A DNA stretch of 64,000 nt from a bacterium (lineage in GTDB: Bacteria; Patescibacteriota; CPR2; UBA1875; JAJYID01): positions 28,770 to 92,769 of the forward strand of contig JAUSJO010000008.1 in assembly GCA_030647205.1 (NCBI GenBank), in the 5' to 3' direction. The notes under the pieces are model-generated. The model did not search any database, was not told the origin of the DNA, and saw nothing but the letters and a program-made list of their open reading frames with translations. Both the position numbers and the translations under genes were made by a program. Shown here piece by piece: positions 5,142 through 46,849 of this stretch (position 1 is the first letter of the stretch; each line of letters starts with the position of its first letter).

Positions 5142-5213
5142 ATGTTTTGTAGGTCATGAGCAAACATCCCAATATCTTCTTGGTATCGGGATGTTTTGTG
5201 TTAAAATGTTTTT

Positions 5214-5734: not shown

Positions 5735-5791
5735 CATTGGGAAAATCGGGTAATATAGTAACAAAAGTAAAACTTAAAGAAAGGGAAAATT

Positions 5792-6052: not shown

Positions 6053-6058
6053 GTTAAA

Positions 6059-6283: not shown

Positions 6284-6681
6284 GTATTAAAATACTCAGC
6301 TACTTCCGGTGGCCAAAGTGAGTTTGCTTTTTCAGAGCAAACTGTATGAATATCATCTTTTTGTATATATTTAACGTCTGTTAGGTCATCTCCCGGACAT
6401 AAAGCATGTGTGAGAGGTCTACATAAATACCACCGCGCAACTCTTTCTGTTTCTGCAACAACTGTTTCGCCAAAGAACTTTATAACCTCGATAGCTATGC
6501 CGGCCTCTTCCATTACTTCTCTGATGAGTCCCTGCTCCTCGGTTTCATTATCTTCCAAACTACCACCGGGAATATGCCAAGCTTCACTCAAAGGATGGCC
6601 TTTGGTTTTCATCTTCTTGCCAACCAAGACTTTTCCCTCGTGTTCAACGACTGCTACTATTGCTTTTCTATAATTTTTCAT
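6280..6681 (-). CDS. NUDIX hydrolase
   Basis: It has the Nudix box 'GGSLEDNETEEQGLIREVMEEAGI' (GX5EX7REUXEEXGU). Confidence 0.85.
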   Translation of the reverse strand: MKNYRKAIVAVVEHEGKVLVGKKMKTKGHPLSEAWHIPGGSLEDNETEEQGLIREVMEEAGIAIEVIKFFGETVVAETERVARWYLCRPLTHALCPGDDLTDVKYIQKDDIHTVCSEKANSLWPPEVAEYFNT

Positions 6682-6822
6682 TTTTATCCTGACTTTTTAT
6701 TATTATAGCAACATTTGATTATTACCGCTAAAGAAAGTATAATAAGCTCAGATCGGAGGGGTTGAAAAAACTTTTTCCGATTTTTTTGTACTTTGAATGC
6801 AATCCTGAAAAAGGAGATTTAA

Positions 6823-7530
6823 ATGAGTCAGGACGCCAAAACATTGCAAGTAGTTGATGGAACTTCAGAACAGTTTCAAAAGAGCTTGGAAGATATTATG
6901 CTGGTTCTTGATCAGACTATAGCAGGGAGGAGAAGTATAACAGTTACTGACTTCCAGGGAAAGGATGAAGCATATCACGTGGTTTTGAAAAGAAACCGTT
7001 TCGAGCTGGTAACCTTAAAAGGTGAGACTGCTCGTATAAAGGCCAGTATTATTAAGGAGCTTGATAGTGACTTTCTGTGCTCTGTCGTCGGATCTTTGGT
7101 TGAAAGTAGCAACTCGCTTCTAATGGCAGAAGACATAGGTAGGATAAAGGTGCTGATAGACCTTTTCGAATCACTCGACAATACAAGATGGGTTTATGAG
7201 TTTGATGTTGATCGTGTATTGATACGGCACACCAGTCAAGAAACCTGTTCGGCGGACCGGTCAATAGGTACCATGTTCACTTCTCGCCCCGGGATAGAAA
7301 TATTCTACAGAGCCCTTGAAAATTTTACAGAAAGGGCCACAGGGAAAAAGAAAGAGCTTGAAGATAGTATTGCGGCTCAAAGTGATGACGTGGCGATTCT
7401 TAGCTCTGATATAGAGGAGGCACAAGGTATCTTGGGTGTCCTAATGGAGAGACGGGAATGGCGCCCTTCTTCATCGGAAGGTGAATTTGATGCTCCAGAT
7501 ACTTCCCCCGACGAGGATATCCCGTTCTAG
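6823..7530 (+). CDS. Hypothetical protein
   Basis: 235-aa ORF with SD 'aaaaaggag'. It is followed by the terminator at 7558-7590. Confidence 0.55.
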   Translation: MSQDAKTLQVVDGTSEQFQKSLEDIMLVLDQTIAGRRSITVTDFQGKDEAYHVVLKRNRFELVTLKGETARIKASIIKELDSDFLCSVVGSLVESSNSLLMAEDIGRIKVLIDLFESLDNTRWVYEFDVDRVLIRHTSQETCSADRSIGTMFTSRPGIEIFYRALENFTERATGKKKELEDSIAAQSDDVAILSSDIEEAQGILGVLMERREWRPSSSEGEFDAPDTSPDEDIPF

Positions 7531-32016: not shown

Positions 32017-32853
32017 ATGTATTCACCTGATAATTTTTTAAATCTGTTCCAAGGAAAAGATTATAGTACAGAAGAAGAACTAGAAAATGACTTTAAGGGC
32101 AAGATAACAGGCTTGTTTAATATCTCTAGCCAACGTTTGAAATCTCAACATCTGACAACTTCATTCGACAAAAGGCTTAGCAATAAAAGTGATGTTATTA
32201 TTTGGGGAGAAGATGACCCAGATCTAGCGCTTGTCATTTTTGAACTTAAAATTGAAAAATCAATCAGACAGTTTAAAAAAGGGAGTTATGAGGATGCAAA
32301 GAAGCAACTTCACTTATATTGCCAAGACATGAGAGCCGCTTATGGTGTCCTTTTGTCTGAAAAGAAATGCTGGATATTTAGATATGACTACAGGGGATCA
32401 AAAACAAGTCATACCGAAGTGAAAATATTACCATTATTAAACCAGATTGAAAATGAGATGACCGCAAGTGTTTCAGAAGAAGTGGATCTTAGAAGAATGG
32501 CAAAGAGGAAAGATGGTATAGAGAAGGGTCTTCTTGAAAAAAGTGCTCAAATAAGGCTAGAAACAAACAGTAGACTCGGCAAAGAAAGAGAAAGACACAA
32601 AAAGTTACTTAAATTTTATACATTTATGGCGATGGGTGCTGTCGTAATATTTTTCATAGTAGGAGGTTATTTCTATAAAGGTGCAGCTTGCGATATTAAA
32701 GGTAATACTTCTCAAAATGGTGACAAGATATATCATACAAAAGAAAGCCCCTCTTATTCCAAAGTTAAGATTGACCCAAAATATGGCGAAAAAATGTTTT
32801 GTTCTGAGAAAGAGGCTGTTAACGCTGGTTTTAGAAAATGGCAAAGCAAGTAG
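32017..32853 (+). CDS. Hypothetical protein with an N-terminal PD-(D/E)xK-like motif, one TM segment and a C-terminal conserved YH...C...AGFR motif
   Basis: 'IIWGEDDPDLALVIFELKIEKS' fits the D...ExK nuclease core. 'KKLLKFYTFMAMGAVVIFFIVGGYF' is a TM segment. The C-terminus 'IYHTKESPSYSKVKIDPKYGEKMFCSEKEAVNAGFRKW' is a recurring bacterial C-terminal motif. Confidence 0.5.
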   Translation: MYSPDNFLNLFQGKDYSTEEELENDFKGKITGLFNISSQRLKSQHLTTSFDKRLSNKSDVIIWGEDDPDLALVIFELKIEKSIRQFKKGSYEDAKKQLHLYCQDMRAAYGVLLSEKKCWIFRYDYRGSKTSHTEVKILPLLNQIENEMTASVSEEVDLRRMAKRKDGIEKGLLEKSAQIRLETNSRLGKERERHKKLLKFYTFMAMGAVVIFFIVGGYFYKGAACDIKGNTSQNGDKIYHTKESPSYSKVKIDPKYGEKMFCSEKEAVNAGFRKWQSK

Positions 32854-32900: not shown

Positions 32901-35000
32901 ATGGACGCAAACAAGTCAGACATTAAAGATTTTATATATACCCCGGGTAGGTTTTTTAAAATTCCTGATTTCCAAAGACCGTATTCTTGGGATAAGGTGA
33001 ATGTCTTAAACTTCCTAGAAGACTTGAAGCAAGCAGTCAAGACAAACCAGAAGCATTTTTTCGGTAGTGTAGTATACGTGAACGAAGGGGACGAAAATAG
33101 CACGATTATAGATGGTCAGCAAAGAGTGACAACAGTCGTTTTAATGCTTACTGCAATTTACCATATTTTATTGGATAATCCCGAAAAAAGCACGATGCAT
33201 TCAGATGAGATCCTTGAAAACTATCTTTTTAACAAAAAAGATTATTATAAAGAGAAAAACCGGATCAAACTAAGAACTGTTACTACTGACGATGAAATCT
33301 ATAAACAAATATTTGAACGGGCCAACATTAGTAGTAACTGCAGGGAAAGTAAACTCTATAGATCATATGAAATATTTTACGAGCACTTTAAGGGCCAACA
33401 AAGTTTGGAAGATTATGTCAAAGGCCTTGCTTGCTTCCAAATAGTAAAGATTTTTCTGGACTCTACCGATGACAATCCACAGAAAGTTTTTGAAAGCATC
33501 AACTCAACCGGGAAGCCCCTAACCGATGGTGACAAGATCCGAAACTTTGCGTTGATGCTCAACAATAGCGAGGCCAGAGAAATGGTGTTGAACAAATATT
33601 GGAAACTCATAGAGTCTGAGCTAACCGAAATAAATAAGGATTATATCTCAGATTTCTTTAAATACCTATTAACGGCAAAACTACAAAGAGACGTAAAAAT
33701 TGATCAGGTTTATCCAGAGTTTAAAAAACTGTTTTATTCAAAAATCGATGACCGTCAAGACGATAAAGATAAACTGGAAGAATTCTACGGTGATATTCTT
33801 AATAACTTAGATTATTATAGCTTCTTAAAATTCAATAAAGACGAGGATAACGACTATAAACTAGTTAGTGATAAAGGGTTCAGGCTCAACTACCTTAAAG
33901 TAGAAACTCATTTCCCGTTTTTGATGAGCGTACTTGCGGAATATAAATCAAAAAAGATCGATGATGAAACACTGGTTAGAATTTTTGATATTCTGGAAAG
34001 TTTTCTTGCCAGGAGAATCATTTGTAATATTTACTCAACTGGTTTAAATAAGTTTTTTGCCGTTTTGCACAGAGAGATTGCCACCTATCAATCAGAATAT
34101 CCTGGTAGCAACTATGCAGATGTTTTTGCGTATATTTTGGCTAACAAAACTGGTGATTTAAGGTTCCCAAAGCATCTCGAGATAGAGGACAACTTAGAAA
34201 ACAACGAATTTTATACACAAAAAGGCATATATGTTAGATATATCCTAAGTTCAGTTGATGACAGTTCAAAGGAATCAAAGATTTTGAGACAAATCTCGGA
34301 AGGAACTCTGCCTCTCACGATTGAGCATATAATGCCGCAGACACTTAACAACGCTTGGAAAAAAGAGTTGGGACCAACCTATGATCAGATACATGATAAG
34401 TATTTGCATACTTTGCCAAACCTTACTTTGACGGGATATAACTCAAAATATTCCAACAACTCATTTAAAGACAAGAAGACAATTGAAAATGGTTTTATGG
34501 ATAGCCCACTAGTTATAAACCAGTTCATTAAAAAACTCGATATTTGGGATCTAAAGGCACTACAAAAAAGAACAAAGTGGTGGCTCAAGCAGATTGATAA
34601 GGTTTGGCCAGTCCCAGAAACCAAGTTCGCTCCAAAGATTCAAGAGACAGAAATAATTTTTGCCGAGGATGATCTCATGGGAGCAAAGATTAAAGCGATA
34701 AAGATTTTTGGGGAAACATATGACTGCAAAAACTGGATAGCTGCATACAAGTTAATACTAGAAAAGTTATTCGAAAACGAGCCAGAAATCTTCAACTGTG
34801 TTGTCTCGGACGAGTTTTTACCTAGATATATAAAAACTACAGAAGATGATTTACTAGAACCGAGGGAAATTACTGGAACACCATACTATTTTGAGGCTAG
34901 TTTAAATAATAACTACAAAAGAGATGTAGTCGCTGCATTGCTAGAATATGCAGAGATTAGTCCATCGGAAATAACGGTACTGTTGGATGAGAAAGCTTAA
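32901..35000 (+). CDS. GmrSD-like type IV restriction or anti-phage enzyme (N-terminal DUF262 ParB-like NTPase, C-terminal DUF1524 His-Me nuclease)
   Basis: DUF262 motifs 'IPDFQRPYSW' and 'IIDGQQRVTT'. The C-terminal 'TIEHIMPQT...' region resembles the DUF1524 HNH-like core. 699 aa. Confidence 0.8.
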   Translation: MDANKSDIKDFIYTPGRFFKIPDFQRPYSWDKVNVLNFLEDLKQAVKTNQKHFFGSVVYVNEGDENSTIIDGQQRVTTVVLMLTAIYHILLDNPEKSTMHSDEILENYLFNKKDYYKEKNRIKLRTVTTDDEIYKQIFERANISSNCRESKLYRSYEIFYEHFKGQQSLEDYVKGLACFQIVKIFLDSTDDNPQKVFESINSTGKPLTDGDKIRNFALMLNNSEAREMVLNKYWKLIESELTEINKDYISDFFKYLLTAKLQRDVKIDQVYPEFKKLFYSKIDDRQDDKDKLEEFYGDILNNLDYYSFLKFNKDEDNDYKLVSDKGFRLNYLKVETHFPFLMSVLAEYKSKKIDDETLVRIFDILESFLARRIICNIYSTGLNKFFAVLHREIATYQSEYPGSNYADVFAYILANKTGDLRFPKHLEIEDNLENNEFYTQKGIYVRYILSSVDDSSKESKILRQISEGTLPLTIEHIMPQTLNNAWKKELGPTYDQIHDKYLHTLPNLTLTGYNSKYSNNSFKDKKTIENGFMDSPLVINQFIKKLDIWDLKALQKRTKWWLKQIDKVWPVPETKFAPKIQETEIIFAEDDLMGAKIKAIKIFGETYDCKNWIAAYKLILEKLFENEPEIFNCVVSDEFLPRYIKTTEDDLLEPREITGTPYYFEASLNNNYKRDVVAALLEYAEISPSEITVLLDEKA

Positions 35001-35011
35001 TAAATAAAACT

Positions 35012-35734
35012 ATGGCAAGAAAACTATACGATCCGAAATCAAAAGAACAGTTTAAAATCAGCCGTACAGGTATAGAGAACTATATCCGTTGTCCGAGGTG
35101 TTTTTATATGAACCAGCGTCTTGGTATAGGTCAGCCGGGCGGATATCCTTTCACTTTAAACTCCGCCGTAGATCATCTTTTGAAAAAGGAGTTCGACATT
35201 CACAGAGCTGGCGCTACCACGCATCCTTTGATGAAACATTATGGTATAGATGCGGTTCCCTTCCAACATGAAGATATGGACAAGTGGCGTCACAACTTCA
35301 CTGGAGTCCAATATATACATAAATCAACAGGATTTTTGATATATGGCGCCGTTGATGATGTCTGGGTGGATCCAAACGGCCAGATCATGGTAGTTGACTA
35401 CAAAGCAACCTCAAAGGATGGGGAAGTAAATCTCGATGCCGAGTGGCAGGACGGGTACAAAAGACAAATGGAAATATATCAGTGGCTTCTCAGGCAAAAC
35501 GGATTCAAAGTTTCGGATACAGGATATTTTGTATATGCTAATGGGCAGAAAGACAGAAAAGCATTTGATGCAAAGCTAGAGTTTGATATCAAAATAATCC
35601 CTTATACGGGAAGTGACGGATGGGTTGAAAAAGCTATAATGGACGCAAAAAAATGTCTAGACTCTGGAGATATCCCTGACTACACTGAGGGTTGTGACTT
35701 CTGTAAGTATCAAAAAGCACTCAAACAACTTTAG
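35012..35734 (+). CDS. PD-(D/E)xK nuclease, Cas4/RecB-like with four Cys (possible Fe-S cluster)
   Basis: N-terminal 'CPRCFY', 'VDDVWVD...MVVDYKATSK' (D/EVK core), 'QMEIYQWLL' (QxxxY), and C-terminal 'CDFCKY'. There are no cas genes in the window. Confidence 0.65.
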   Translation: MARKLYDPKSKEQFKISRTGIENYIRCPRCFYMNQRLGIGQPGGYPFTLNSAVDHLLKKEFDIHRAGATTHPLMKHYGIDAVPFQHEDMDKWRHNFTGVQYIHKSTGFLIYGAVDDVWVDPNGQIMVVDYKATSKDGEVNLDAEWQDGYKRQMEIYQWLLRQNGFKVSDTGYFVYANGQKDRKAFDAKLEFDIKIIPYTGSDGWVEKAIMDAKKCLDSGDIPDYTEGCDFCKYQKALKQL

Positions 35735-35828: not shown

Positions 35829-37385
35829 ATGACCGAGGAGCAGAAAAAACAGCTTCAGACTCAACTTTGGAATATCGCCAACGAACTCCGAGGCAAAATG
35901 AATGCCGATGAGTTTCGTGACTATATTCTTGGCTTTATTTTCTATAAGTATCTTTCAGAAAAAATGCATCTTTATGCCAACGAAGTTCTTGAAGCAGACA
36001 AGATAGATTACACCGATATCAAAGAGAACACAGAAGATGGCAAAAAAATTATTGAAGTTATAAAAAAAGAATCCATAGATAAGCTTGGCTATTTTCTCAA
36101 ACCCTCAGAACTTTTTCATTCTCTGGTGGAGAGAGACGCGAACTCAAATGACATCATCGAAGATCTAGAGAGAATCCTTGGCAATATAGAAAGAAGTACT
36201 ATGGGGACTGACAGCGAGGACGATTTTGATAAACTTTTCTCAGAGCTAGACCTAAACAACTCAAAACTTGGTAGATCTGTTCATGATCGAAGTCAGCTTA
36301 TAGGGAAAGTTCTTTCTCATCTTGATAAGATAAATTTCTTTTTGGAAGATTCAAGGATAGATGTCCTTGGGGATGCTTATGAATATCTAATTGGTCAGTT
36401 TGCCAGTGGCGCCGGGAAGAAAGCAGGGGAATTCTATACTCCTCAAGAAGTTTCAGAAGTTCTAGCAAAACTTGTAACTTCGGGGAAAAAACATTTGAAA
36501 AGTGTTTACGATCCAACTTGCGGTTCTGGCTCATTGCTTTTGAGAGTTGCCAGATATGTCGACGATGTTGGCTTTTTCTATGGACAAGAAATGAACCACA
36601 CTACATACAACCTTGCTCGTATGAACATGATTCTTCACGATGTTCGTTATGACAGATTCAATATCAGGCAGGAAGACACTCTGGAGCATCCACAACATTT
36701 AGAAGAACGATTTGAAGCAATTGTTGCCAACCCACCATTTGGCGCCGAATGGTCAGCTCATCAGACATTTTTGAATGATGATCGCTTTAGCCAGTATGGC
36801 AGACTAGCGCCAAAGAAGAAGGCCGACTATGCCTTTATAGAACACATGATTTATCAGCTGGATGATAATGGAACCATGGCAACCGTTATGCCTCATGGCG
36901 TGCTTTTCCGTGGTGCTGCAGAGGGACACATTCGCGAGCATCTCATCAAAGAAAAGAATTATCTAGATGCTGTTATCGGACTTCCTGCAAATCTCTTTTA
37001 CGGCACGAGTATTTCTGCTTGTCTCCTAGTTTTTCAAAAATGCCGTAAGAACTCTGATAATGTTCTCTTTATAGATGCAAGCAAACATTTTGTAAAAGGC
37101 AAGAACCAAAACAAACTTCAGGCCGAAGACATAGAAAAGATTATCAAAACTTATCGAGAAAGAAAAGTAGAGGATAAATACAGTTATGTGGCAAGTCTCA
37201 AGGAAATAGCCGAAAATGACTACAACCTGAACATTCCTATTTACGTAGACACTTTTGAAGAGGAAGAGTTGATAGATCTCGCAGAAGTTACTCAAGAAAT
37301 AAAAAAGATTGATAAAGAGATGGTGGGTGTTGATAAAAAGATAGCAGAATATTGTAAGGAGATCGGCATCAATCCGCCGTTTTAA
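35829..37385 (+). CDS. hsdM: Type I restriction-modification system DNA methyltransferase subunit M
   Basis: N-terminal HsdM_N region. SAM motif I 'DPTCGSGSLL' and catalytic motif IV 'IVANPPFGAEW' (NPPF) of N6-adenine MTases. Confidence 0.9.
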   Translation: MTEEQKKQLQTQLWNIANELRGKMNADEFRDYILGFIFYKYLSEKMHLYANEVLEADKIDYTDIKENTEDGKKIIEVIKKESIDKLGYFLKPSELFHSLVERDANSNDIIEDLERILGNIERSTMGTDSEDDFDKLFSELDLNNSKLGRSVHDRSQLIGKVLSHLDKINFFLEDSRIDVLGDAYEYLIGQFASGAGKKAGEFYTPQEVSEVLAKLVTSGKKHLKSVYDPTCGSGSLLLRVARYVDDVGFFYGQEMNHTTYNLARMNMILHDVRYDRFNIRQEDTLEHPQHLEERFEAIVANPPFGAEWSAHQTFLNDDRFSQYGRLAPKKKADYAFIEHMIYQLDDNGTMATVMPHGVLFRGAAEGHIREHLIKEKNYLDAVIGLPANLFYGTSISACLLVFQKCRKNSDNVLFIDASKHFVKGKNQNKLQAEDIEKIIKTYRERKVEDKYSYVASLKEIAENDYNLNIPIYVDTFEEEELIDLAEVTQEIKKIDKEMVGVDKKIAEYCKEIGINPPF

Positions 37386-37389
37386 TTTT

Positions 37390-38244
37390 ATGCTTTCTGA
37401 AGATGAAATAGTTAAAGAGATGATAAAGGCGAACGCGACGGAAGCGTATAGGGACGCCGCTCAACCAGCGGTTAGAGTAGTCGGGCAGTCAATAGCGCAA
37501 TGTGTGTCATTATTTGTAACACCCATCGGCAGGATGGCGGCGATTTTAGAAAAAAATCTTCACCTTTATTTAGATAAACTTGATAGATATAAAGAGAAAG
37601 AACTTATATCTCCAGATGTTAGAATTCTAGTGCCGATACTGGAAAAGTTGAGGTATACGGAAGACATTGTAGTGGCAGAATATTACGCAGAGATACTAGC
37701 AAAGGCATCTACCAAGGAAAATTCAAAAAGGGTGCTGATCTCATTTATCGAAATTTTAAATAGATTAAGCTCTGACGAGATCAAAATATTAGAGTATATA
37801 AACTCTAACGATAATATTGTTGATTTTGAACCAATAACTGAAGAGGAGAGCGGACAACTGAACTTACCTGCTGGTTTTTGCAAAGCTGTTATTAAGGGTG
37901 CGGTTCCCGTTATTGATATTAAAATTGTTCAAAGTGGCACTACAGGTTTTTCGATTGCCGGCAGAAACTGCAATTTATTGCCCGATCTAATTAATCTTTC
38001 TGGGCCAAGGAATATTGATTCATATGTAGACAATATGATCTCACTCGGTCTCCTGGAGCGACCACATGACAGATCTTTCGCAAACAAGAAAATTTATTCA
38101 AAGCTTGAAAATGACCCAAATGTTATAGAGTTACAAAAGGGCTTAGCGAAAAGCCAAAGGATTGAGTTTGATAGGGCACAATTGGCAATAACTAGTTTAG
38201 GCGTAAAACTTTTAGAACTTTGCTCAACAGGGGTTAAGCCATGA
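37390..38244 (+). CDS. Hypothetical protein embedded between hsdM and hsdS (possible Abi-like accessory defense gene)
   Basis: 284-aa ORF translationally coupled on both sides (a 4-nt gap from hsdM and an ATGA overlap with hsdS). It has no TRD-like repeats and no confidently recognised domain. Confidence 0.55.
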   Translation: MLSEDEIVKEMIKANATEAYRDAAQPAVRVVGQSIAQCVSLFVTPIGRMAAILEKNLHLYLDKLDRYKEKELISPDVRILVPILEKLRYTEDIVVAEYYAEILAKASTKENSKRVLISFIEILNRLSSDEIKILEYINSNDNIVDFEPITEEESGQLNLPAGFCKAVIKGAVPVIDIKIVQSGTTGFSIAGRNCNLLPDLINLSGPRNIDSYVDNMISLGLLERPHDRSFANKKIYSKLENDPNVIELQKGLAKSQRIEFDRAQLAITSLGVKLLELCSTGVKP

Positions 38245-39488
38245 TGGTGGAAACAACAAATGTTCCCAAACTTAGGTTTAAGGAATTTAAGGATGCGTGG
38301 CAAACTCCTACGTTTGGTACTGTATTTGAACGTGTAACTACGAAAAACAAAGAAAATAACCAAAATATCCTAACAATTTCAGCTCAGGATGGACTAATCG
38401 GCCAAGATAAATTTTTTACTAAACTAGTCTCCGCTAAGGATGTGACTGGCTATTATCTATTACGAAAAAATGACTTTGCTTACAATAAGAGTTATTCAAA
38501 GGGTTACCCCATGGGGGCGATAAAGAGACTTTTCAAAGATAACGCTGGAGTTGTATCAACTTTGTACATCTGCTTTAGATCGAAAGAACCGAGAAGCATT
38601 ATATTTTATGAGCAGTATTTTGATGCTGGGAAATTAAATATTGAGATTGAAAAGATAGCGCAAGAAGGGGCAAGGAATCATGGCTTATTAAACATGAGTG
38701 TTGTTGATTTTTTTAAAATGTCTATCTTAAGACCAAACATTACAGAACAAGAAAAGATTGCGGGGTTTTTGGGGAGTGTTGATGAGAAAATTGGGAAATT
38801 GGAAGAGAAGAAAAAGCAGTTTGAGAAATATAAAAAAGGTGTAATGCAGGCGATTTTCTCGCAAAAAATCCGCTTTAAAGATAAGACTGGAATGGAATTT
38901 CCGGATTGGGAGGAAAAGGAATTGGGTGAAATCGGTAAGACATACAACGGACTAACCGGTAAATCTGCGGAAGACTTTGGAAAAGGGTTTCCATATATTA
39001 CTTATAAGCAAATTTTTGACGGCTCTAATGTAGATGTTTCAAAATGTAGTTTTGTGAACATTAAAGAAAATGAAGCACAAAGTAAAGCGAAGAAAGGTGA
39101 CGTGTTTTTTACTACATCTTCTGAGACGCCCCTAGAAGTTGGTTTTTCCTCAGTCTTGTTAGAAGATGTTGAGGATGTGTATCTTAATAGTTTTTGTTTC
39201 GGATTTAGACTGTTTGATAATAAAAAAACTTTGCCATATTTTCTAAAGTTCTTATTTAGAAGCGAGTATTTTAGAAGAAAAACAATAAGATTAGCACAAG
39301 GTAGTACTAGATATAATATCTCAAAAATTGGTCTTTTAAAAACAATTATTCAAATACCGGATTCAGAAGAACAGGGGAAAATCGCCGAATTTTTGACAAG
39401 CTTGGATGATAAAATTGATTTAATAAATAAGGAGTTGGGGAAGGTTAAAGAATTCAAAAAAGCCCTTCTCCAGCAGATGTTTGTGTGA
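38241..39488 (+). CDS. hsdS: Type I restriction-modification system specificity subunit S
   Basis: Two target-recognition domains separated by the conserved coiled-coil repeats ('...KKKQFEKYKKGVMQAIFSQKIRF' and '...ELGKVKEFKKALLQQMF'). Confidence 0.85.
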   Translation: MMVETTNVPKLRFKEFKDAWQTPTFGTVFERVTTKNKENNQNILTISAQDGLIGQDKFFTKLVSAKDVTGYYLLRKNDFAYNKSYSKGYPMGAIKRLFKDNAGVVSTLYICFRSKEPRSIIFYEQYFDAGKLNIEIEKIAQEGARNHGLLNMSVVDFFKMSILRPNITEQEKIAGFLGSVDEKIGKLEEKKKQFEKYKKGVMQAIFSQKIRFKDKTGMEFPDWEEKELGEIGKTYNGLTGKSAEDFGKGFPYITYKQIFDGSNVDVSKCSFVNIKENEAQSKAKKGDVFFTTSSETPLEVGFSSVLLEDVEDVYLNSFCFGFRLFDNKKTLPYFLKFLFRSEYFRRKTIRLAQGSTRYNISKIGLLKTIIQIPDSEEQGKIAEFLTSLDDKIDLINKELGKVKEFKKALLQQMFV

Positions 39489-41128
39489 TGATTATCAAAC
39501 TTTTAAATAATTCTGATAAAAACCTATTTGTTGGTTTGGCTGGTCCTGGAACTGGGAAAAGCCATACTTTTAAGACTATTATTAATTCAGGTGAATTTAA
39601 GGGCAAGAAGATACTTATATTATCGTTTATTAACAAATTAGTTAACGACCTAGAAAGAGAGTTCGATGATTTTGACAATGTTAGAGTTTCCACACTACAT
39701 TCGTTTGCGTTGCAGAAGTACAAGAACTTGTTTCGTGAAACAACAATAGAGCTCGAACAAGACCTAGACGGTTTGATAAGTGAAGATTATTTCTATATTA
39801 ATAAAGAGAAAATTAGTTACGAAGCAAGGCTATGCGAGGGTAATCTTGATAAAGAGGAGGAGGAGTTTTATTTGGGGCGGGCTGAATTTTATAGCAATGA
39901 AGGGAAACTTTATTCTTTCAACTCAATAATTCATGCAGTCAACAGTATCTTCTCAAACAATAACGATAAGATCCCAGATGAATATGACTTAATACTCGTA
40001 GATGAGTTTCAGGACTTTAATCAACTAGAATATAACTTGATCAAGTTGTTGAACAAGAAAAATAAAGTTATCTTAGTCGGTGACGATGATCAGTCCTTGT
40101 ATGACTGGAAGCACGCACGGCCAGAGCTAATACGTGCACTATATAATCATGAAGGAACAGGTGAATTTTCGTTAGACTTCTGCTACAGATGCACACAAGT
40201 TGTTGTTGACGCGGTAAATAGCCTGATATCAAACGCGAAGAGTGATGGTTACCTTCAAGATAGAGCAGATGAGAAGAAATTTCTATATCCCACAGAAAGG
40301 ACTGATGACAAGAATGAAATAAGCGCAAAACATTCTTGTATCGATTTTGTTTCGGGGGTGAGTGGCCATCAATTGATATACCAGCTAGCGACAAGAATAC
40401 GAAAAGAAGTAGAAGAACATAATGGCGGCAGAGTACTTGTATTAGTTCCATCTTTTCTTAAACAATCAATTTATGAAGGTCTTTCTGGGGAGGGTTTTAA
40501 TGTAGTTGAGTTTGAATTATTTGGGAATGAAGGACGCAATAAGATAAAACACAAGTATCTAATTGAGGCATTTAAAACGTTAGCTATAAGAAAAACAGAT
40601 AACTTAATGTTAAGGAAGATAATTCCGTTATATCTATCGGACTCTGAAATTAGAAAACTAATAATAAATTGTGATAATCTCCAAAAGAAAATATGGTACG
40701 TTTTGGATGGAGAAACAAAAGTTCGCATTGAGCAAGATATAGCATTGTTTAAAAAAGCAAAGCAAGGAAAGACTGAACTAACGGCCGATGAGTTGAAGAG
40801 ATTTAGTGAAATATTTAACCTAAAGAATTTAATATCAAAGATGATAAAAGGTTTTGCGCCGAATACTCGGGGCGCTATAGAGGTTGAGATGACAACAGTG
40901 ATGAGCTCTAAAGGACTTTCGGCTGATTTCGTGTATTATATTGGGGTTGATGATTATATTATGCTTGATAAAGAAACAGGCGAGCTAACTGACCAAAAAA
41001 TCTGTGAGTTTCTAGTTGGGATAACAAGAGCGAAGAAAAAACTAACATTATTCTCAGCAAATGAGGGCGAGCCAGTAATACTGAAATTTATTGATAGTAA
41101 ATTCGTGAGGAGAAGTAAAACCAAATGA
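39485..41128 (+). CDS. UvrD/PcrA-like SF1 helicase-family protein embedded between hsdS and hsdR
   Basis: Walker A 'GLAGPGTGKSHTF', motif II 'LILVDEFQDFNQ', motif III 'VLVGDDDQSLYDW', and the C-terminal UvrD_C-like 'GLSADFVYYIGVDD...VGITRAKKKLTLF'. At 547 aa it is a minimal UvrD-like core. It is overlap-coupled to both neighbours. Confidence 0.75.
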   Translation: MMIIKLLNNSDKNLFVGLAGPGTGKSHTFKTIINSGEFKGKKILILSFINKLVNDLEREFDDFDNVRVSTLHSFALQKYKNLFRETTIELEQDLDGLISEDYFYINKEKISYEARLCEGNLDKEEEEFYLGRAEFYSNEGKLYSFNSIIHAVNSIFSNNNDKIPDEYDLILVDEFQDFNQLEYNLIKLLNKKNKVILVGDDDQSLYDWKHARPELIRALYNHEGTGEFSLDFCYRCTQVVVDAVNSLISNAKSDGYLQDRADEKKFLYPTERTDDKNEISAKHSCIDFVSGVSGHQLIYQLATRIRKEVEEHNGGRVLVLVPSFLKQSIYEGLSGEGFNVVEFELFGNEGRNKIKHKYLIEAFKTLAIRKTDNLMLRKIIPLYLSDSEIRKLIINCDNLQKKIWYVLDGETKVRIEQDIALFKKAKQGKTELTADELKRFSEIFNLKNLISKMIKGFAPNTRGAIEVEMTTVMSSKGLSADFVYYIGVDDYIMLDKETGELTDQKICEFLVGITRAKKKLTLFSANEGEPVILKFIDSKFVRRSKTK

Positions 41129-43986
41129 CAGCACAATCAGAACAAGCATTAGAGAATAGTTTAGTCAAACAGCTCGAGGGGATGAGATACGAGCGGGTTG
41201 TTATTTATGACGAGGAAATGCTCTTTGTGAACCTGAAGATTCAGCTGGAAAAACACAATGGTATAAAGCTGAGCGATAAAGAGTTTGAGAGGATTCTAAA
41301 TCATTTGGACAAAGGGAATGTTTTTGATCGGGCGAAGATATTGCGAGACAAGATGCATCTGGTTCGAGATGATGGCATGAGTGCATACATAGAGTTTCTA
41401 AACACTCGAGAGTGGTGCCAGAACGAGTTTCAGGTGGCAAATCAGATCACAAATACGGGTGAGTATAAGACTAGGTATGATGTAACTATTTTGATCAACG
41501 GACTCCCTCTGGTTCAGATAGAGCTAAAAAGAAGAGGACTGGAGCTAAAGGAAGCTTTCAACCAAGTAAATCGATATCGCCGGCACTCATACACCGCTGC
41601 TCGTGGTCTTTTCCAGTACATTCAAATCTTTGTTATTAGCAACGGAGTAAATACAAAGTACTATGCGAACACGGTGAGCTACATGACAGACAAGAAGCAG
41701 TCCTTCAAACAAACATTTTTCTGGGCCAATAAGAGTAATAAGAACATAAAAAAGCTGGATGATTTTGCCAAGATATTTCTGGAGAGATGCCATCTGGCGA
41801 AGATGATTACAAAGTACACAGTACTTTCTGAAGCGGACAAGATTCTGATGGTTTTGCGACCTTATCAGTACTATGCGGTTGAAGCGATAGTTGATCGAGT
41901 AAAGAACTCGAAAAAGAATGGTTATATCTGGCACACCACTGGAAGCGGCAAGACATTGACAGCATTTAAGGCGAGCCAGACCTTGATAGATTCACCCGAT
42001 GTCTATAAAGTCGTTTTTGTCGTCGATCGGAACGATTTGGATTACCAGACGATAAAAGAGTTTAATAAGTTCAGAGCGGGAAGTGTTGACGGAACTGATA
42101 ATACTCGGATGCTGGTGAAGCAGTTCGAAGATGAGACGAATGACGCAAAACTGATCGTGACGACCATACAAAAGATTAATACTGCTATCAGTAAAGAACG
42201 ACATCTGAAGAAAATGGAAAAGCATAAAGACAAGAAAATAGTCTTTATTTTCGATGAGTGCCACAGGAGCCAGTTTGGTGAGACGCACAAAAGGATTACT
42301 CAGTATTTTCAGAATTATCAAATGTTTGGCTTTACCGGTACACCGATATTCGCCGAGAACGCTGTGGGTTCTGGGGCTGACAAAAAGACAACTGCCCAGC
42401 TTTTCGATGAGTGTCTGCATAAATATGTGATTACCGATGCGATATCTGATGAAAATGTTTTACGATTTCTAGTAGAGTATGTGGGTAGATACAGGAGAAA
42501 GGCAGATAGTGAGAACGACATAGATATAGAGGTTGAAGGGATTGATACAAAAGAGCTCATGGAATCGTCTAAGAGGATTGAAAAGATTACCGACTACATA
42601 ATCGCAAACCATGATAGAAAAACTCATTCCAAAGAATTTACGGCTATGTTTTGTACCTCGAGTATTGATGTTTTGACAAGATATTATGAAACTTTCAGGA
42701 AGAAGAAAGAAGCGGGAGAGCATAATCTAAAAATCGCCACAATCTTTAGTTTTGCCGCAAATGAGGAAGATAAAGACGCTGATGGAATGATAGGTGAGGC
42801 GGATGTTGATATAGAAAAGGACCAGCCTATCAATAAACACTCAAGGGATAAGCTCGAAGAATACATCGGTGATTACAATAAAATGTTTGGTACTAACTTC
42901 ACAACAAAAGACAACACCAGCTTTTATAACTATTATAAAAATATTGCACAGAGAGTGAAGGAAAGGGACATTGATATTTTAATAGTGGTAAACATGTTTC
43001 TGACCGGATTTGACGCGAAAACTTTAAATACTCTATATGTTGATAAAAACTTGCGATATCACGGACTGATCCAGGCTTACTCAAGGACAAACAGAATATT
43101 AAATGAACGTAAGTCGCATGGCAACATTGTAGTTTTTAGAAACTTAAAGAAGGCGACCGACCGAGCCGTAGCCCTCTTTAGCAATAAAGATGCAAAGGAA
43201 ATAATATTTTTAGAACCATATAAAAAATATGTTGAGCAATTCAATGGTGTTTTGCTCGACTTAAGGAATTTGGCACCCACACCGGACTATGTGGATGATC
43301 TAGTTAGTGAAACAGATCAGCTAGTTTTCGTAACTACATTTAGAGAATTAACTCGTTTGAAAAATGTTTTAACTACTTTTGCTGACTTTTCTTTCTCAGA
43401 TACAAGGATATCGGAGCAAGAATTTGAGGATTACAAAAGTAAGTATCTAGATATATATGACAAAGTTAAGAGCGATAATGAGCATGAAAAAGTTTCTATC
43501 TTAGATGATGTTGATTTTGAAATTGAGTTAATAAGAAGGGATGAAATAAACATTGATTACATCTTGAGACTCCTTGCTTTATATATTGACGCAGATGAAA
43601 CAGAGCGTAAGCGTATCGTGAAAAACGTTTCAGATATCATGTCAGGAGATTTAGCTCTAAGAAGCAAGAAGGAATTAATTGAAAAGTTCATAGAAGAGAA
43701 CATTCCTGAAATTAAAGATTCGACAGAAGTGGATGGCGCTTTTGAAGAGTTTTGGCGAGAAGAACAATTGAAAGAATTTGAGAAGATTTGTAAAGAAGAA
43801 GGCTTAATGGATGAAATGCTGCAGAAGGTAATAGATAGATATTTATACACGGGGCTTAAGCCAAAAAGGCATGATTTGGCAAAAACATTGAAAACCCAGC
43901 CAAAAGTTCTAGAGAGGGACAATATAATCAAAAGGATTGGGAAGAAAGTAGATAAATTCATCGAAACGTTTTTGGATGGGGTGTAA
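41125..43986 (+). CDS. hsdR: Type I restriction enzyme endonuclease/helicase subunit R
   Basis: HsdR_N nuclease region, SF2 motor motifs 'HTTGSGKTLTAF' (motif I) and 'IFDECHRSQFG' (DEAH-like motif II), and a long C-terminal helical domain. 953 aa. Confidence 0.9.
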   Translation: MTAQSEQALENSLVKQLEGMRYERVVIYDEEMLFVNLKIQLEKHNGIKLSDKEFERILNHLDKGNVFDRAKILRDKMHLVRDDGMSAYIEFLNTREWCQNEFQVANQITNTGEYKTRYDVTILINGLPLVQIELKRRGLELKEAFNQVNRYRRHSYTAARGLFQYIQIFVISNGVNTKYYANTVSYMTDKKQSFKQTFFWANKSNKNIKKLDDFAKIFLERCHLAKMITKYTVLSEADKILMVLRPYQYYAVEAIVDRVKNSKKNGYIWHTTGSGKTLTAFKASQTLIDSPDVYKVVFVVDRNDLDYQTIKEFNKFRAGSVDGTDNTRMLVKQFEDETNDAKLIVTTIQKINTAISKERHLKKMEKHKDKKIVFIFDECHRSQFGETHKRITQYFQNYQMFGFTGTPIFAENAVGSGADKKTTAQLFDECLHKYVITDAISDENVLRFLVEYVGRYRRKADSENDIDIEVEGIDTKELMESSKRIEKITDYIIANHDRKTHSKEFTAMFCTSSIDVLTRYYETFRKKKEAGEHNLKIATIFSFAANEEDKDADGMIGEADVDIEKDQPINKHSRDKLEEYIGDYNKMFGTNFTTKDNTSFYNYYKNIAQRVKERDIDILIVVNMFLTGFDAKTLNTLYVDKNLRYHGLIQAYSRTNRILNERKSHGNIVVFRNLKKATDRAVALFSNKDAKEIIFLEPYKKYVEQFNGVLLDLRNLAPTPDYVDDLVSETDQLVFVTTFRELTRLKNVLTTFADFSFSDTRISEQEFEDYKSKYLDIYDKVKSDNEHEKVSILDDVDFEIELIRRDEINIDYILRLLALYIDADETERKRIVKNVSDIMSGDLALRSKKELIEKFIEENIPEIKDSTEVDGAFEEFWREEQLKEFEKICKEEGLMDEMLQKVIDRYLYTGLKPKRHDLAKTLKTQPKVLERDNIIKRIGKKVDKFIETFLDGV

Positions 43987-43995
43987 AAATTTCTA

Positions 43996-44128
43996 AGCAA
44001 GCTCTCAGCTTTATCTTCCTAAATAGGTAAATTTAAAAATCTACCGATTTTTTGTGCTAGAATATTCTTATGTCAAATGCATTTCGGAAAATCATTGAGT
44101 TTATAAAGGCGAAAAAGATAAAATTATG
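43996..44128 (+). repeat. Direct repeat DR1 (~133 bp) flanking the fic gene; it contains a truncated duplicate of the promoter and first 17 codons of the 45453 gene
   Basis: The 49-bp core 'gctagaatattcttatgtcaaatgcatttcggaaaatcattgagtttata' (44056-44104) is identical to 45439-45487. The flanks are about 80% identical. Confidence 0.85.
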
Positions 44129-44246: not shown

Positions 44247-45380
44247 ATGAAAATTGAAATAGGTAAATTCGTAAGCCAACCAAGAGGGTATAAGTCCTTT
44301 GTCACCAATCCCTTTCCTCCTAAGGGTATTTTTGGCTTTCCTGCTAAAACGCTTGTGAAGGCAGATAAGGCTACTAGGCTTGTCGGTAAGCTGGATGGTG
44401 TTACACACGAGTTGCCGGATGTGGACTTCTTCCTATATATGTTTATTATTAAGGATGCTGAGGCATCCTCTCAAATAGAAGGAACAAAAGCAACAATCGT
44501 TGATGTTTTAGAGGCCAATGCTGGGATAGCGCCAAAAGAGACAGATTCAAGCGATATTGACTTTTATATTGAGGCCTTAAATTATGGGATTGTAAGAATA
44601 AAAAAGTTACCCCTGTCCTTGAGATTTATTAGAGAGTTACACTCTAAACTTATGACGGGTGCAAGAGCGACTCATTTTTCAGATCCTGGCAACTTTCGAA
44701 ATTCTCAAAACTGGATAGGTGGTGCTACGTTGTCTGATGCGAGTTACGTTCCACCAGCTGTTACTGATATGAATCCAGCTCTCAGTGATTTGGAAAAATT
44801 TTTACACAATGAGGAAGTATTGCCATTAATCCAGGCAGCTATTGCTCATGCTCAGTTTGAGACGATTCATCCTTTTCTTGATGGTAATGGTAGAACCGGT
44901 CGACTTCTTATCACCCTTTTGTTATTGGAAAGGAAGTTATTAGATAAACCGGTATTATTTCTTTCTTGGTATTTTAAAAAACATCAAAAGGTCTATTATC
45001 AGAAACTCGGCGATTACCATGATGGTAAGGTGGATGAATGGGTTAATTTTTTCCTAGATGGGGTGATCGAAACCGCCGAAGATTCCATTAGAATCAGCAA
45101 GAAGATTTTTCAATTAAGGGAAGAAGATATGTGCAAGATTCATGCCCTTGGCAAACGAGAAGCTGAGAGTGGCATTTTGGTATTGAGAAATTTATTTAAG
45201 ATGCCAATCATAAATTCCAGAATAGTTATGGGATGGACCGGCTTCACTAGAGCAGGATCTATAAAACTGATAGAGCGCTTTGTAAGTCTTGGGATATTGA
45301 TCGAGAGAAAAACAGAAGGTAAGGAAAAAGTTTATTCATATGTAAATTATTTAAAAGCGTTTACTAGGGATAACAAATAA
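44247..45380 (+). CDS. fic: Fic family protein (class II, with an internal inhibitory motif)
   Basis: Fic motif 'HPFLDGNGRTGRLL' (HPFx[DE]GNGRxxR). The N-terminal 'SSQIEGTKAT' fits the [ST]xxxE[GN] auto-inhibitory helix. The C-terminal domain is winged-helix-like. Confidence 0.9.
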   Translation: MKIEIGKFVSQPRGYKSFVTNPFPPKGIFGFPAKTLVKADKATRLVGKLDGVTHELPDVDFFLYMFIIKDAEASSQIEGTKATIVDVLEANAGIAPKETDSSDIDFYIEALNYGIVRIKKLPLSLRFIRELHSKLMTGARATHFSDPGNFRNSQNWIGGATLSDASYVPPAVTDMNPALSDLEKFLHNEEVLPLIQAAIAHAQFETIHPFLDGNGRTGRLLITLLLLERKLLDKPVLFLSWYFKKHQKVYYQKLGDYHDGKVDEWVNFFLDGVIETAEDSIRISKKIFQLREEDMCKIHALGKREAESGILVLRNLFKMPIINSRIVMGWTGFTRAGSIKLIERFVSLGILIERKTEGKEKVYSYVNYLKAFTRDNK

Positions 45381-45389
45381 TAAAGTAAT

Positions 45390-45508
45390 TAGCAAACTCT
45401 CAGCTTTATCTCTTATTACTCATTAAAAACAATTTTGCGCTAGAATATTCTTATGTCAAATGCATTTCGGAAAATCATTGAGTTTATAGAGGCGAAGAAG
45501 ATATTGGT
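45390..45508 (+). repeat. Direct repeat DR2 (partner of DR1); it overlaps the true promoter and 5' end of the 45453 gene
   Basis: See DR1. The offset between the identical cores is 1383 bp. Confidence 0.85.
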
Positions 45509-46304
45509 TATTGTTTGTGCCTTGGCGTTAGTCATTATTGTCATTGCAACAACTGTGGTTTTGATCAAAAGATCTCCAGAGAAAAAATCAGAAGAGTTTA
45601 GAGATGTTCCAAAAATTGCCGAAACAAGGGTTGATGAAAGTGCCAGTCAGTGGCCGAGTACAAGCGCGAAGTACATTACCGCTGTGCCGGTAGACCTGAG
45701 CCAGATACAAAGTATTTCTAAGTATCGCAGTTGTGCGGGGCATGACTTTGCCGGGTATAGTTTTGAGCAGGTACAGGAAGCTAATCGCTCAATGAAGCAC
45801 TATGTCTATCCGACTCCGCAGTTTCAGGGGACGACTGACAAGGTCAAGGTGTTTGCTCCTTTTGACGGAGTGGTTTCAAAAGTTGAGCTTGAGAGTGAGG
45901 TAGCCGGTCAGCCCGGCAAGCGCCCTAAAACAGGAAATAGCATCACTTTTTCAACTGAGGTTGATAAAAATGTTGGTTTTGAGTTTAGTCACGTCTACTT
46001 CGCGGGAGATTTTAAAGTTGGTGACAAGGTGAAGGCGGGCGAACTGATCGGTTATGCCGCTCTAGGTGACAAGGGCAACGATTTTGACCTCGTACTTTCC
46101 GGGACGCGCCTAAAGAACGAGAAGGCATATGGTAGCGCTTTTGACCACATGACAGATAGCGTCCTCGCAGAGTTTGCCAAGTATGGTGTAACGCCTGAAA
46201 ATAATAAGTTTACTAAAGAATATCGAGATGCTAATCCCTGTGACTTCACTCAGCAACAACAAAGAGGTCGTACGGGCGCTGACTGGCTCCAGCTAAAACA
46301 CTGA
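45453..46304 (+). CDS. Membrane-anchored or secreted hypothetical protein
   Basis: N-terminal TM 'ILVIVCALALVIIVIATTVVLI'. 283 aa. The ATG lies only about 6 nt after a TAGAAT -10-like box, so the mRNA may be leaderless. Confidence 0.6.
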   Translation: MSNAFRKIIEFIEAKKILVIVCALALVIIVIATTVVLIKRSPEKKSEEFRDVPKIAETRVDESASQWPSTSAKYITAVPVDLSQIQSISKYRSCAGHDFAGYSFEQVQEANRSMKHYVYPTPQFQGTTDKVKVFAPFDGVVSKVELESEVAGQPGKRPKTGNSITFSTEVDKNVGFEFSHVYFAGDFKVGDKVKAGELIGYAALGDKGNDFDLVLSGTRLKNEKAYGSAFDHMTDSVLAEFAKYGVTPENNKFTKEYRDANPCDFTQQQQRGRTGADWLQLKH

Positions 46305-46403
46305 CATTCCAATATTCTCAAGAATGTAAGAATGTCGTTTTTTTGTTTCTGTATACTTGTTTCGCCACACATATTCCAATATTCTTGAGAATGTAAGAAT
46401 ATT
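46296..46403 (+). promoter_or_regulatory. Two copies of a ~32-bp palindromic operator-like repeat upstream of arsR
   Basis: 'acattccaatattctcaagaatgtaagaatgt' (46305-46336) and 'atattccaatattcttgagaatgtaagaatatt' (46371-46403). Each contains the inverted repeats attct-N3-agaat and acattc...gaatgt. A third copy lies at 46686-46718. Confidence 0.6.
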
Positions 46404-46416
46404 TTTTGGAGGGATT

Positions 46417-46686
46417 ATGAAGAAAACACCAAGACAACTTGAAAGACATTTAAAGGGTCTGGCAAATCATAGGCGCATTGAGATCCTGGACTGTATCGCC
46501 AGAAATGACGGGATAATACTAGAGTCAATCGCCGAGCACTTGGAGTGTAATGTAAAAACAATTTCAGAGCACACAAGAAGGTTGTATCAGGCTGGACTCG
46601 TAAACAAAAAGTATCACGGAAGGGCAGTAATGCACTCACTTTCTCCATATGGTAAGCAGTTTTATAGCTTCATAAAAAAGTTCTAA
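46417..46686 (+). CDS. ArsR/SmtB family transcriptional regulator
   Basis: 'LKGLANHRRIEILDCIARNDGIILESIAEHLECNVKTISEHTRRLYQAGLVNKKYHGRAVMHSL' has the ArsR wHTH layout. The start is set to the ATG at 46417, after SD 'ggaggg'; the longer ORF from 46357 would read through the operator repeats. Confidence 0.75.
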   Translation: MKKTPRQLERHLKGLANHRRIEILDCIARNDGIILESIAEHLECNVKTISEHTRRLYQAGLVNKKYHGRAVMHSLSPYGKQFYSFIKKF

Positions 46687-46718
46687 CATTCCAACATTCT
46701 GGAGAATGTGAGAATGTT
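46686..46718 (+). promoter_or_regulatory. Third copy of the arsR-associated palindromic repeat, downstream of arsR
   Basis: 'acattccaacattctggagaatgtgagaatgtt'. Confidence 0.5.
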
Positions 46719-46849
46719 AGTTCTAAGTAAGATTTTAGTCGTATCTTGAAAGTTTATTGTAAAAACGCTCAATGAAAAACATCGAGCATATGTTAGTATT
46801 TGTATAATATATGTTGGTTTCTTTAAACTATAAGTGAAGGGAGATAAAA

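Follow-up and report, generated by a model that had tools for sequence, protein, structure and literature searches.

A UvrD-like helicase nested in a type I restriction-modification operon of a Patescibacteriota bacterium, and its probable Cas4-like nuclease partner

We analyzed a 64,000-nucleotide (nt) stretch of contig JAUSJO010000008.1, hereafter the window, which comes from an uncultured bacterium of the Patescibacteriota lineage CPR2. It encodes a type I restriction-modification (R-M) operon with two additional genes nested in it: one for an Abi_alpha protein, between hsdM and hsdS, and one for a UvrD-like helicase of superfamily 1A (SF1A), between hsdS and hsdR (Table 1). A gene for a Cas4-like nuclease lies upstream of the operon, and its product is, to judge from related loci, the probable partner of the helicase. 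The R-M operon itself is intact, since HsdM, HsdS, and HsdR each have a complete set of domains according to Pfam and PADLOC. HsdR has the N-terminal nuclease, the superfamily 2 (SF2) motor, and the C-terminal assembly domain that identify a type I enzyme, and it matches PADLOC REase_I with 1072 bits over residues 1-946. HsdS has full-length matches to Specificity_I, e.g., over residues 2-415 at an E-value (E) of 5e-79. The junctions from hsdM to hsdR consist of one 4-nt gap followed by three 4-nt overlaps, a spacing that is consistent with translational coupling. A first-pass annotation, made by a model from the letters of the sequence, had already reported the five open reading frames (ORFs) of this operon with their coordinates and overlaps, all on the plus strand. 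It had also described the hsd genes as intact, the embedded genes as translationally coupled, and the helicase as carrying the UvrD motif set, i.e., GTGKS, DEFQD, GDDDQSLY, and VGITRAKKKL, all of which are in the translation. Our analysis bears it out on each of these points.

Table 1. Genes of the defense island and their positions in the window (aa, amino acids)
Gene or product	Position	Strand	Length (aa)	Matches and remarks
Sunset-domain protein	32017-32853		278	Left edge of the island; C-terminal "sunset," NCBIfam NF051437 E 4e-12
GmrSD-type (type IV) restriction enzyme	32901-35000	+	699	GmrSD_N + GmrSD_C (Pfam)
Cas4-like PD-(D/E)XK nuclease	35012-35734	+	240	Pfam PDDEXK_1 E 1e-12
hsdM, type I methyltransferase	35829-37385	+	518	HsdM_N 3.5e-17; N6_Mtase 3e-111; PADLOC MTase_I 2e-165
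Abi_alpha (DUF4393)	37390-38244	+	284	Pfam PF14337; PADLOC PDC-S47
hsdS, two target-recognition domains	38241-39488	+	415	Methylase_S; PADLOC Specificity_I 3e-105
UvrD-like SF1A helicase	39485-41128	+	547	GTG start; UvrD-helicase, AAA_19, UvrD_C
hsdR, restriction/translocase subunit	41125-43986	+	953	HSDR_N, SWI2_SNF2/ResIII, T1R_D3-like, EcoR124_C
SoFic-type Fic protein	44247-45380	+		Fic_N + Fic (Pfam); PADLOC SoFic 1.5e-105

The embedded helicase belongs to a family of proteins of ~540 aa whose members are 50-63% identical; those with a named source come from Nomurabacteria, Pacebacteria, and one Flavisolibacter. An alternative start, the ATG at position 39488, gives a 546-aa form that is identical to a database protein (P0001). 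The Walker A lysine (K25), the DEFQD and GDDDQ motifs, and the arginine fingers (R235 and R515) are invariant across the family. The AlphaFold2 (AF2) model of the protein, with a predicted local distance difference test (pLDDT) score of 89.5, is closest in fold to UvrD, PcrA, and Rep. Its top Foldseek match is UvrD (2is6; E 1e-25, query TM-score [TMq] 0.72), and the next-best folds are those of AddA, AdnA, and RecB, at E ~1e-16. A profile search of the PDB likewise returns Rep, UvrD, PcrA, AddA, and RecB. Is the protein then simply a housekeeping UvrD, PcrA, or Rep? We rejected this assignment, because the scores against the NCBIfam models of these proteins (70-89 bits) are far under the equivalog cut-offs (911-1168) and only the motor motifs align, because the protein has 547 aa instead of ~650-750 aa, and because its relatives lie among restriction or defense genes in most of the informative loci. 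The same low scores and contexts speak against the conserved chromosomal UvrD/PcrA paralogue that the first-pass annotation had named as the case that would undo its proposal. A scan of viral contigs gave no close relative of the helicase (the best was 28% identical); hence, the family is not evidently phage-borne.

It had also been suggested at first pass that the helicase recalls GajB of the Gabija system. The two share a UvrD-like SF1 helicase in a defense context, and the best PADLOC matches of the window protein are indeed GajB models (E 8.5e-32), but these matches cover mainly the conserved motor motifs. The GajB structures 8iud and 8sm3 rank 43-45 in the Foldseek list (E 1e-11, TMq 0.36), where UvrD comes first, and the profile search of the PDB gave no GajB at 1e-5. 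Among the ORFs that we scanned (23.4-53.6 kb), none encodes an AAA_15, OLD, or Toprim protein of the GajA type, which agrees with the earlier remark that an OLD/Toprim partner is absent. We therefore rejected Gabija. No dedicated PADLOC model matches the helicase.

The genomic contexts of the family were gathered by exact-protein look-ups and from 80 metagenome loci obtained by an alignment-based scan, all annotated with Pfam; a scan of genome contigs with the single helicase sequence as query gave two loci. In the clade closest to the window protein, the helicase accompanies type I systems (the window, L014, L017, L019, L020, L021, L029, and L030), type II systems (the DpnII methyltransferase-restriction-methyltransferase string of L001, an N4/N6 methyltransferase in L024, and a C5 methyltransferase in L035), type IIG enzymes (L003 and its replicates), and a type III system (L026). 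In L018 and L023, type IV enzymes of the GmrSD_N-HNH kind precede a helicase-nuclease pair, and further members of this clade are accompanied by AbiH in L012 and by Fic in L013. The helicases of a second clade, which share 31-35% identity with that of the window and 34% with that of L018, occur with type I (L050 and L098), type III (L076), type ISP (L083), and type IIG (L089 and L060) systems, and beside an N4/N6 methyltransferase in L073. The 72 upstream neighbors tallied with this clade include 10 N6_Mtase, 7 Methylase_S, 5 N6_N4_Mtase, and 5 ResIII/HSDR_N genes. Of the 47 loci that are informative, i.e., non-redundant and with a same-strand upstream neighbor, at least 20 show a methyltransferase or restriction gene adjoining the helicase, and many of the others are truncated contigs. 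The place of the helicase within hsd operons varies: it may lie between hsdS and hsdR, between hsdM and hsdS (L020 and L029), or after hsdS/hsdR (L017 and L030). Judged by these neighborhoods, the family to which the helicase belongs, and which comes mostly from Patescibacteria, appears to be a general accessory of restriction systems. Neither the literature that we searched nor the PADLOC v2 models describe this family or its nesting within R-M systems, which does not in itself prove novelty; the literature search likewise returned no UvrD-like helicases embedded in hsd operons and no mention of "UvrD" together with "DUF2779." In L018, genes for an AAA_21 ATPase and a RloB-like protein (positions 5210-6966) immediately precede those for the helicase, PDDEXK_1, and DUF2726. 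The first two genes resemble AbiL or a pair of "restriction-linked ORFs."

The first-pass annotation had proposed orthologous hsdMSR loci as a way to tell which genes are variably present, and such loci do separate the two embedded genes. Three operons are orthologous to that of the window: L021 (HsdM and HsdR both 70% identical), with the order hsdM-hsdS-helicase-hsdR followed by a receiver (REC) and a DUF2779 gene; L014 (58% and 54%), with hsdM-hsdS-helicase-hsdR-PDDEXK_1; and L019 (58% and 58%), where two ORFs of 231 and 252 aa precede hsdS in the order hsdM-231aa-252aa-hsdS-helicase-hsdR. All three keep the tight hsdS-helicase-hsdR spacing of the window, with 4-nt overlaps in L021, and Abi_alpha is absent from all of them. 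From these gene orders, it seems that the helicase has been co-inherited with this hsd lineage and that the slot between hsdM and hsdS holds exchangeable cargo. The two ORFs in that slot of L019 (2059-3568) are unrelated, lack a convincing Pfam match, and are candidate embedded defense genes of unknown kind. Other genes were seen elsewhere in such operons, namely, the receiver-domain protein and DUF2779 nuclease after hsdR in L021 (7199-8982) and an AAA_14/DUF4143 ATPase between hsdS and hsdR in L029 (6716-8140).

Abi_alpha, for its part, occurs without the helicase. In L181, a different type I operon, it occupies the same slot in the order hsdM-Abi_alpha-hsdS-BroN-hsdR, and the helicase is absent from all four of the Abi_alpha contexts that we looked up (L179 to L182). 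Since the helicase is found without Abi_alpha in L014, L019, and L021 and Abi_alpha without the helicase in L181, the two genes of the window are, as far as gene content tells, two independent insertions. Abi_alpha is near the helicase in 3 of 78 non-redundant helicase loci. A 49% identical Abi_alpha lies at most two genes from a member of the helicase family in L041, and one lies directly upstream in L053/L054; these cases count against full independence and leave some room for a loose functional link, although the ORFs that accompany it show no relationship between L041 and L053.

What is the 284-aa protein encoded between hsdM and hsdS? It had been described at first pass as having no recognized domain and as a possible Abi-like effector. 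The description has to be corrected and the guess proved right: the protein matches Abi_alpha of Pfam (PF14337/DUF4393) at E 1.1e-34 with 120.6 bits (cut-off, 29) over residues 56-278, and its residues 16-279 align with positions 16-261 of the 265 in the PDC-S47 profile of PADLOC (PDLC05024; E 3.7e-42). Both the match to this hidden Markov model (HMM) and the embedding in a type I R-M operon, between hsdM and hsdS, place it in PDC-S47. PADLOC arrived at its PDC candidates through "guilt-by-embedding," with type I R-M, BREX, and DISARM systems as the hosts (bioRxiv 10.1101/2024.01.29.577857); a literature search for "PDC-S47" returned nothing. Abi-alpha was defined as ef2833 of prophage 6 of Enterococcus faecalis V583, a 272-aa single protein that protects E. 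faecalis on its own, with an abortive-infection phenotype and premature lysis, its mechanism beyond that being unknown (PMC6356687). The window protein is similar in size (284 versus 272 aa), but the E. faecalis gene belongs to a Firmicutes prophage, whereas the window copy is part of an R-M operon on the chromosome of an uncultured bacterium. No sequence relative of it was found among solved structures. Its relatives are 45-56% identical and mostly from Patescibacteria. Those of L179 and L180 stand alone among housekeeping genes, and that of L182 adjoins a type ISP enzyme. The gene is thus predicted to be a self-contained, single-gene candidate of the abortive-infection type in the variable hsdM-hsdS cargo slot. 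As such, it is one more case of an already catalogued embedded defense candidate, an ordinary one that adds little.

The first-pass annotation overlooked the nuclease gene, which is the usual immediate neighbor of the helicase in related loci. The matches of this nuclease to Cas4 are weak (TIGR00372, 35.3 bits versus a cut-off of 65). The best Foldseek matches of its AF2 model (pLDDT 89.7) are Cas4, RecE, the nuclease domains of AdnA/AdnB and AddB, Exo5, and Dna2. Its invariant residues are C27, C30, C228, C231, the D115/D116 pair, and D129-Y-K131. A cysteine cluster therefore brackets the PD-(D/E)XK core, a trait shared with the Cas4/AddB group, although the cysteines follow a 2+2 pattern. 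We rejected the possibility of a CRISPR Cas4, because the score is under the TIGR00372 cut-off and there are no cas genes nearby, either in the window or in the related loci.

The link between this nuclease and the helicase comes from the related loci. PDDEXK_1 is the commonest family downstream of helicase homologues, and the window nuclease is 53-62% identical to a nuclease of ~250 aa encoded in L003, L018, L023, L050, L076, and L014. In four of these loci (L003, L018, L050, and L076), the gene of the latter begins right at the helicase stop codon, with or without an overlap; in L023, it is at most ~90 nt away from that codon, and in L014, it comes after hsdR. The most telling case is that of the nuclease genes of L018 (8626-9318) and L076 (6099-6794), which encode proteins 87.5% identical and are 79% identical in nucleotides. 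The nucleotide homology between these two loci is limited to the nuclease gene, from its start: the upstream helicases share just 34% identity, and what follows downstream is unrelated in the two loci. Because the homology stops at the nuclease gene, a nuclease cassette seems to have been joined to two divergent helicases, which argues for a selected adjacency of helicase and nuclease and against shared ancestry of the loci or an insertion hotspot. PD-(D/E)XK nucleases of other families are also found next to the helicase, namely, DUF2779 (L017, L021, and L035) and SduA_C (L009 and L024), and further adjacent nucleases are of the DUF2726 (L018, and L023 by homology) and SNase (L012) families. 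An iterated HMM of the nuclease revealed no hidden remote copies among the unannotated neighbors of the helicase, and the ORFs of L041 (240 aa), L053 (246 aa), L016 (263 aa), L017 (248 aa), and L012 (201 aa) are unrelated to the nuclease and to one another. Across ~858 kb of helicase loci, the HMM gave 17 hits (10 distinct sequences), all of them inside helicase/R-M gene strings. From these comparisons, the Cas4-like nuclease is the probable partner of the embedded helicase.

Several observations weigh against such a partnership. In size, the PDDEXK_1 family far exceeds that of the helicase. Every one of the 8000 candidates that were scored had E < 1e-5, and identity was at least 63% for the 120 best ones listed, the named ones coming from several lineages of Patescibacteria. 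In L183, the one complete Patescibacteria genome that we inspected, the nuclease gene stands alone among housekeeping genes. The nuclease could thus be a general repair enzyme that is only sometimes linked to the helicase; family size and L183 suggest a general Patescibacteria enzyme that was recruited at a subset of loci and is not an obligate partner. In the window itself, hsdM, Abi_alpha, and hsdS lie between the nuclease and the helicase, and a 94-nt gap separates the nuclease gene from hsdM. Finally, there is no recognizable nuclease partner in L001, L026, L013, and (its SNase gene aside) L012.

How does this pair compare with known systems? A UvrD-type SF1A motor together with a Cas4/RecB-type PD-(D/E)XK nuclease recalls AddAB, AdnAB, and RecBCD, and also ZomB, a fused UvrD and Cas4-like protein with ATP-dependent nuclease activity (PMC9453066). 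As in AddAB and AdnAB, the window helicase has intact ATPase motifs and the nuclease has a cysteine cluster that brackets its domain. The AddAB/AdnAB type, however, is a stable complex of large, two-lobed subunits of >1000 aa with Chi-regulated end resection, whereas the window encodes separate proteins of 547 and 240 aa, sizes far from those of AddA and AddB, and its pair has no second or inactivated motor lobe and no sign of Chi recognition. The cysteines of the window nuclease form a CxxC...CxxC (2+2) arrangement, whereas the pattern of Cas4/AddB is 1+3. The genes of the window family are in restriction operons and not in repair loci, and the nuclease partner of the helicase family is interchangeable (PDDEXK_1, DUF2779, or SduA_C). 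By analogy, the pair would be AddAB/AdnAB-like in its proposed working but outside the architecture of that family.

Other defense systems resemble the locus in single traits. Hachiman and Shedu share with it the pairing of a helicase with a PD-(D/E)XK nuclease and the logic of a two-gene defense, and an SduA_C nuclease directly follows the helicase in two members of the family (L009 and L024). However, HamB is an SF2 helicase and HamA a DUF1837 protein, neither of which is among the PADLOC matches of the helicase (best 25 of 42) or of the nuclease, and the window has no SduA. PrrC, RloC, and the "rlo" ORFs are also accessory defense genes nested in hsd operons. PrrC is embedded almost exclusively in type I R-M systems (bioRxiv 10.1101/2024.01.29.577857), whereas the helicase family is not limited to type I systems, and neither of the embedded genes of the window matches PrrC or RloC in the PADLOC and Pfam output.

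We give a probability of about 50% to the reading that best accommodates these observations, namely, that the R-M operon carries two independent modules, of which one is Abi_alpha and the other is the helicase working with the Cas4-like nuclease as a split AddAB-like machine. The two proteins would interact physically and, as a minimal split version of AddAB/AdnAB, act at double-strand ends. The SF1A motor would load at the ends cut by HsdR, or by the other restriction enzymes that the family accompanies, and unwind the DNA, while the Cas4-like nuclease would degrade the unwound strands. A single restriction cut would thereby become the irreversible destruction of the invader DNA, to the benefit of defense. 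We propose the ends left by restriction as the substrate because double-strand ends are the one product common to all of the restriction types accompanied. The data bear directly on the identities, folds, and catalytic residues of the gene products, on the recurrent embedding and nuclease adjacency, and on the separateness of Abi_alpha from the helicase; the interaction of the two proteins, their loading at restriction ends, and the benefit to defense are inferred. A broader and decidedly more tentative proposal is that the helicase, usually with a Cas4-like nuclease, could be a portable "end-destruction" accessory that Patescibacteria and their relatives add to restriction systems of all types. 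It would depend on restriction cleavage for loading and supply, within the R-M operon, the exonuclease function that RecBCD has in Escherichia coli.

Does the helicase depend on restriction at all? According to the main rival reading, the helicase, with or without the nuclease, could act against phages as a defense system in its own right, placed in R-M operons only for co-transfer and co-regulation, and one that senses phage DNA or replication intermediates, degrading DNA or aborting infection like Hachiman, Gabija, Nhi, or Shedu. There is precedent, since type I R-M, BREX, and DISARM systems often harbor known defense systems with no functional dependence between them (Payne et al. 2024, bioRxiv 10.1101/2024.01.29.577857). 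Moreover, the helicase accompanies SduA_C (L009 and L024), AbiH (L012), Fic (L013), or the AAA_21 and RloB genes (L018) with no directly adjacent methyltransferase, and its varying position within hsd operons suggests repeated insertion. Still, four hsd operons at 54-70% identity keep it at the same tight spot, which indicates long-term co-inheritance and not transient cargo. The family also accompanies every restriction type, in two clades ~34% identical to each other; in L001 and L026, there is a helicase and a restriction system but no other nuclease; and dedicated PADLOC models fail to match it. We consider autonomy doubtful, if far from implausible: the retention in the four hsd operons, together with L001 and L026, makes us lean toward functional integration, without settling it. 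In a different vein, the helicase might serve the host by removing restriction complexes that have stalled on the DNA or have already cut it (restriction alleviation or removal of roadblocks), the nuclease being an unrelated housekeeping repair enzyme. UvrD, PcrA, and Rep, to which its fold is closest, are known protein-displacing accessory helicases, and type I enzymes remain on the DNA after cleavage. In addition, Patescibacteria very commonly encode a nuclease of this family, whose gene can have housekeeping genes as its only neighbors. Yet the helicase is also found with simple type II (DpnII and C5 methyltransferase) and type IV systems, which lack long-lived translocating roadblocks, and it is recurrently and tightly joined to several PD-(D/E)XK families, including the cassette exchange of L018 and L076. 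A host-serving role is therefore improbable in our view.

The last two alternatives concern which genes belong together. The first-pass annotation had left it undecided whether the two embedded genes form a split two-gene system or are independent insertions, and it is the second option that stood. Translational coupling in one operon and the proximity of Abi_alpha to members of the helicase family in L041 and L053/L054 would suit a split system. This is hard to reconcile with the helicase loci devoid of Abi_alpha (L014, L019, and L021), the four of four Abi_alpha contexts devoid of the helicase, the mere 3 of 78 helicase loci with Abi_alpha nearby, and the unrelated intervening or adjacent ORFs of L041 and L053; in addition, Abi-alpha protects E. 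faecalis as a single gene (PMC6356687). We thus regard a split system as very improbable. The adjacency of helicase and nuclease could, on the other hand, be coincidental, the helicase being a diverged housekeeping UvrD/PcrA paralogue or the islands inserting at a conserved nuclease hotspot. The sequence matches in NCBIfam and the PDB are to UvrD, Rep, and PcrA, and the nuclease is a highly conserved gene of Patescibacteria. Coincidence nevertheless has very little in its favor when the helicase scores far under the equivalog cut-offs, most of the informative helicase loci are restriction or defense neighborhoods, and the nuclease hits in ~858 kb of such loci are confined to helicase/R-M gene strings. 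The hotspot account in particular was rejected by the comparison of L018 and L076, whose near-identical nuclease genes differ in both flanks.

The operon lies in a low-GC stretch of the window (~32.0-45.5 kb, with a GC content of 0.33-0.41 versus 0.44-0.50 in the flanks). This stretch is a defense island around the intact type I R-M operon, and the genes that flank it are ordinary chromosomal ones. We found no tRNA genes and no island-flanking repeats that would mark an integration site of the whole island. Scans for promoters and terminators between 31.5 and 46.5 kb gave sites no more numerous than in shuffled sequence, and operon boundaries are defined here by gene spacing only. The sunset-domain protein at the left edge has no Pfam match, and its sequence suggests a putative hydrophobic segment. 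The GmrSD-type enzyme matches PADLOC Orf5 (1.5e-113) and HEC-06 (1.8e-55), and the nuclease gene begins 11 nt after its end.

Downstream of hsdR, the SoFic gene is probably its own transcription unit. It is bracketed by direct repeats of ~135 nt (43987-44120 and 45382-45503) that comprise 71 nt at 96% identity and 30 nt at 83% and take in the first ~17 codons of the downstream gene for a 283-aa protein (45453-46304). Since the repeat includes these codons, a truncated copy of the 5' end of the 283-aa gene lies directly after hsdR, and the SoFic gene looks like a recent cassette insertion between hsdR and that gene. Fic or SoFic-like genes also occur near helicase-containing R-M strings in L020 (4390-5616; 55% identical to the window SoFic), L013 (2134-3060), and L050 (3672-4766), which suggests that an R-M system, a helicase, and a Fic protein form a recurrent trio. 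Further on, three copies of a 42-nt, partly palindromic element with the core ATTCCAATATTCTCAAGAATGTAAGAAT surround (46299-46722) a small ORF (46357-46686) that encodes a putative ArsR-type helix-turn-helix regulator, of which the repeats are putative operator sites.

The helicase represents an uncharacterized family, mostly from uncultured Patescibacteria, whose members adjoin restriction genes of types I, II, IIG/ISP, III, and IV. It appears to be an undescribed accessory of restriction systems, and its likely partner is encoded outside the span that was originally reported. The locus also teaches that inspection limited to an operon can miss a partner gene just outside it. If the proposed partnership is true, the two proteins would be a compact helicase-nuclease that is easy to study biochemically. 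If the end-destruction proposal holds as well, they would be an unrecognized and widespread third functional component of R-M, and not a separate defense system. By processing the ends left by restriction, the helicase and its nuclease could allow bacteria with small genomes to turn one cut into the irreversible destruction of invader DNA.

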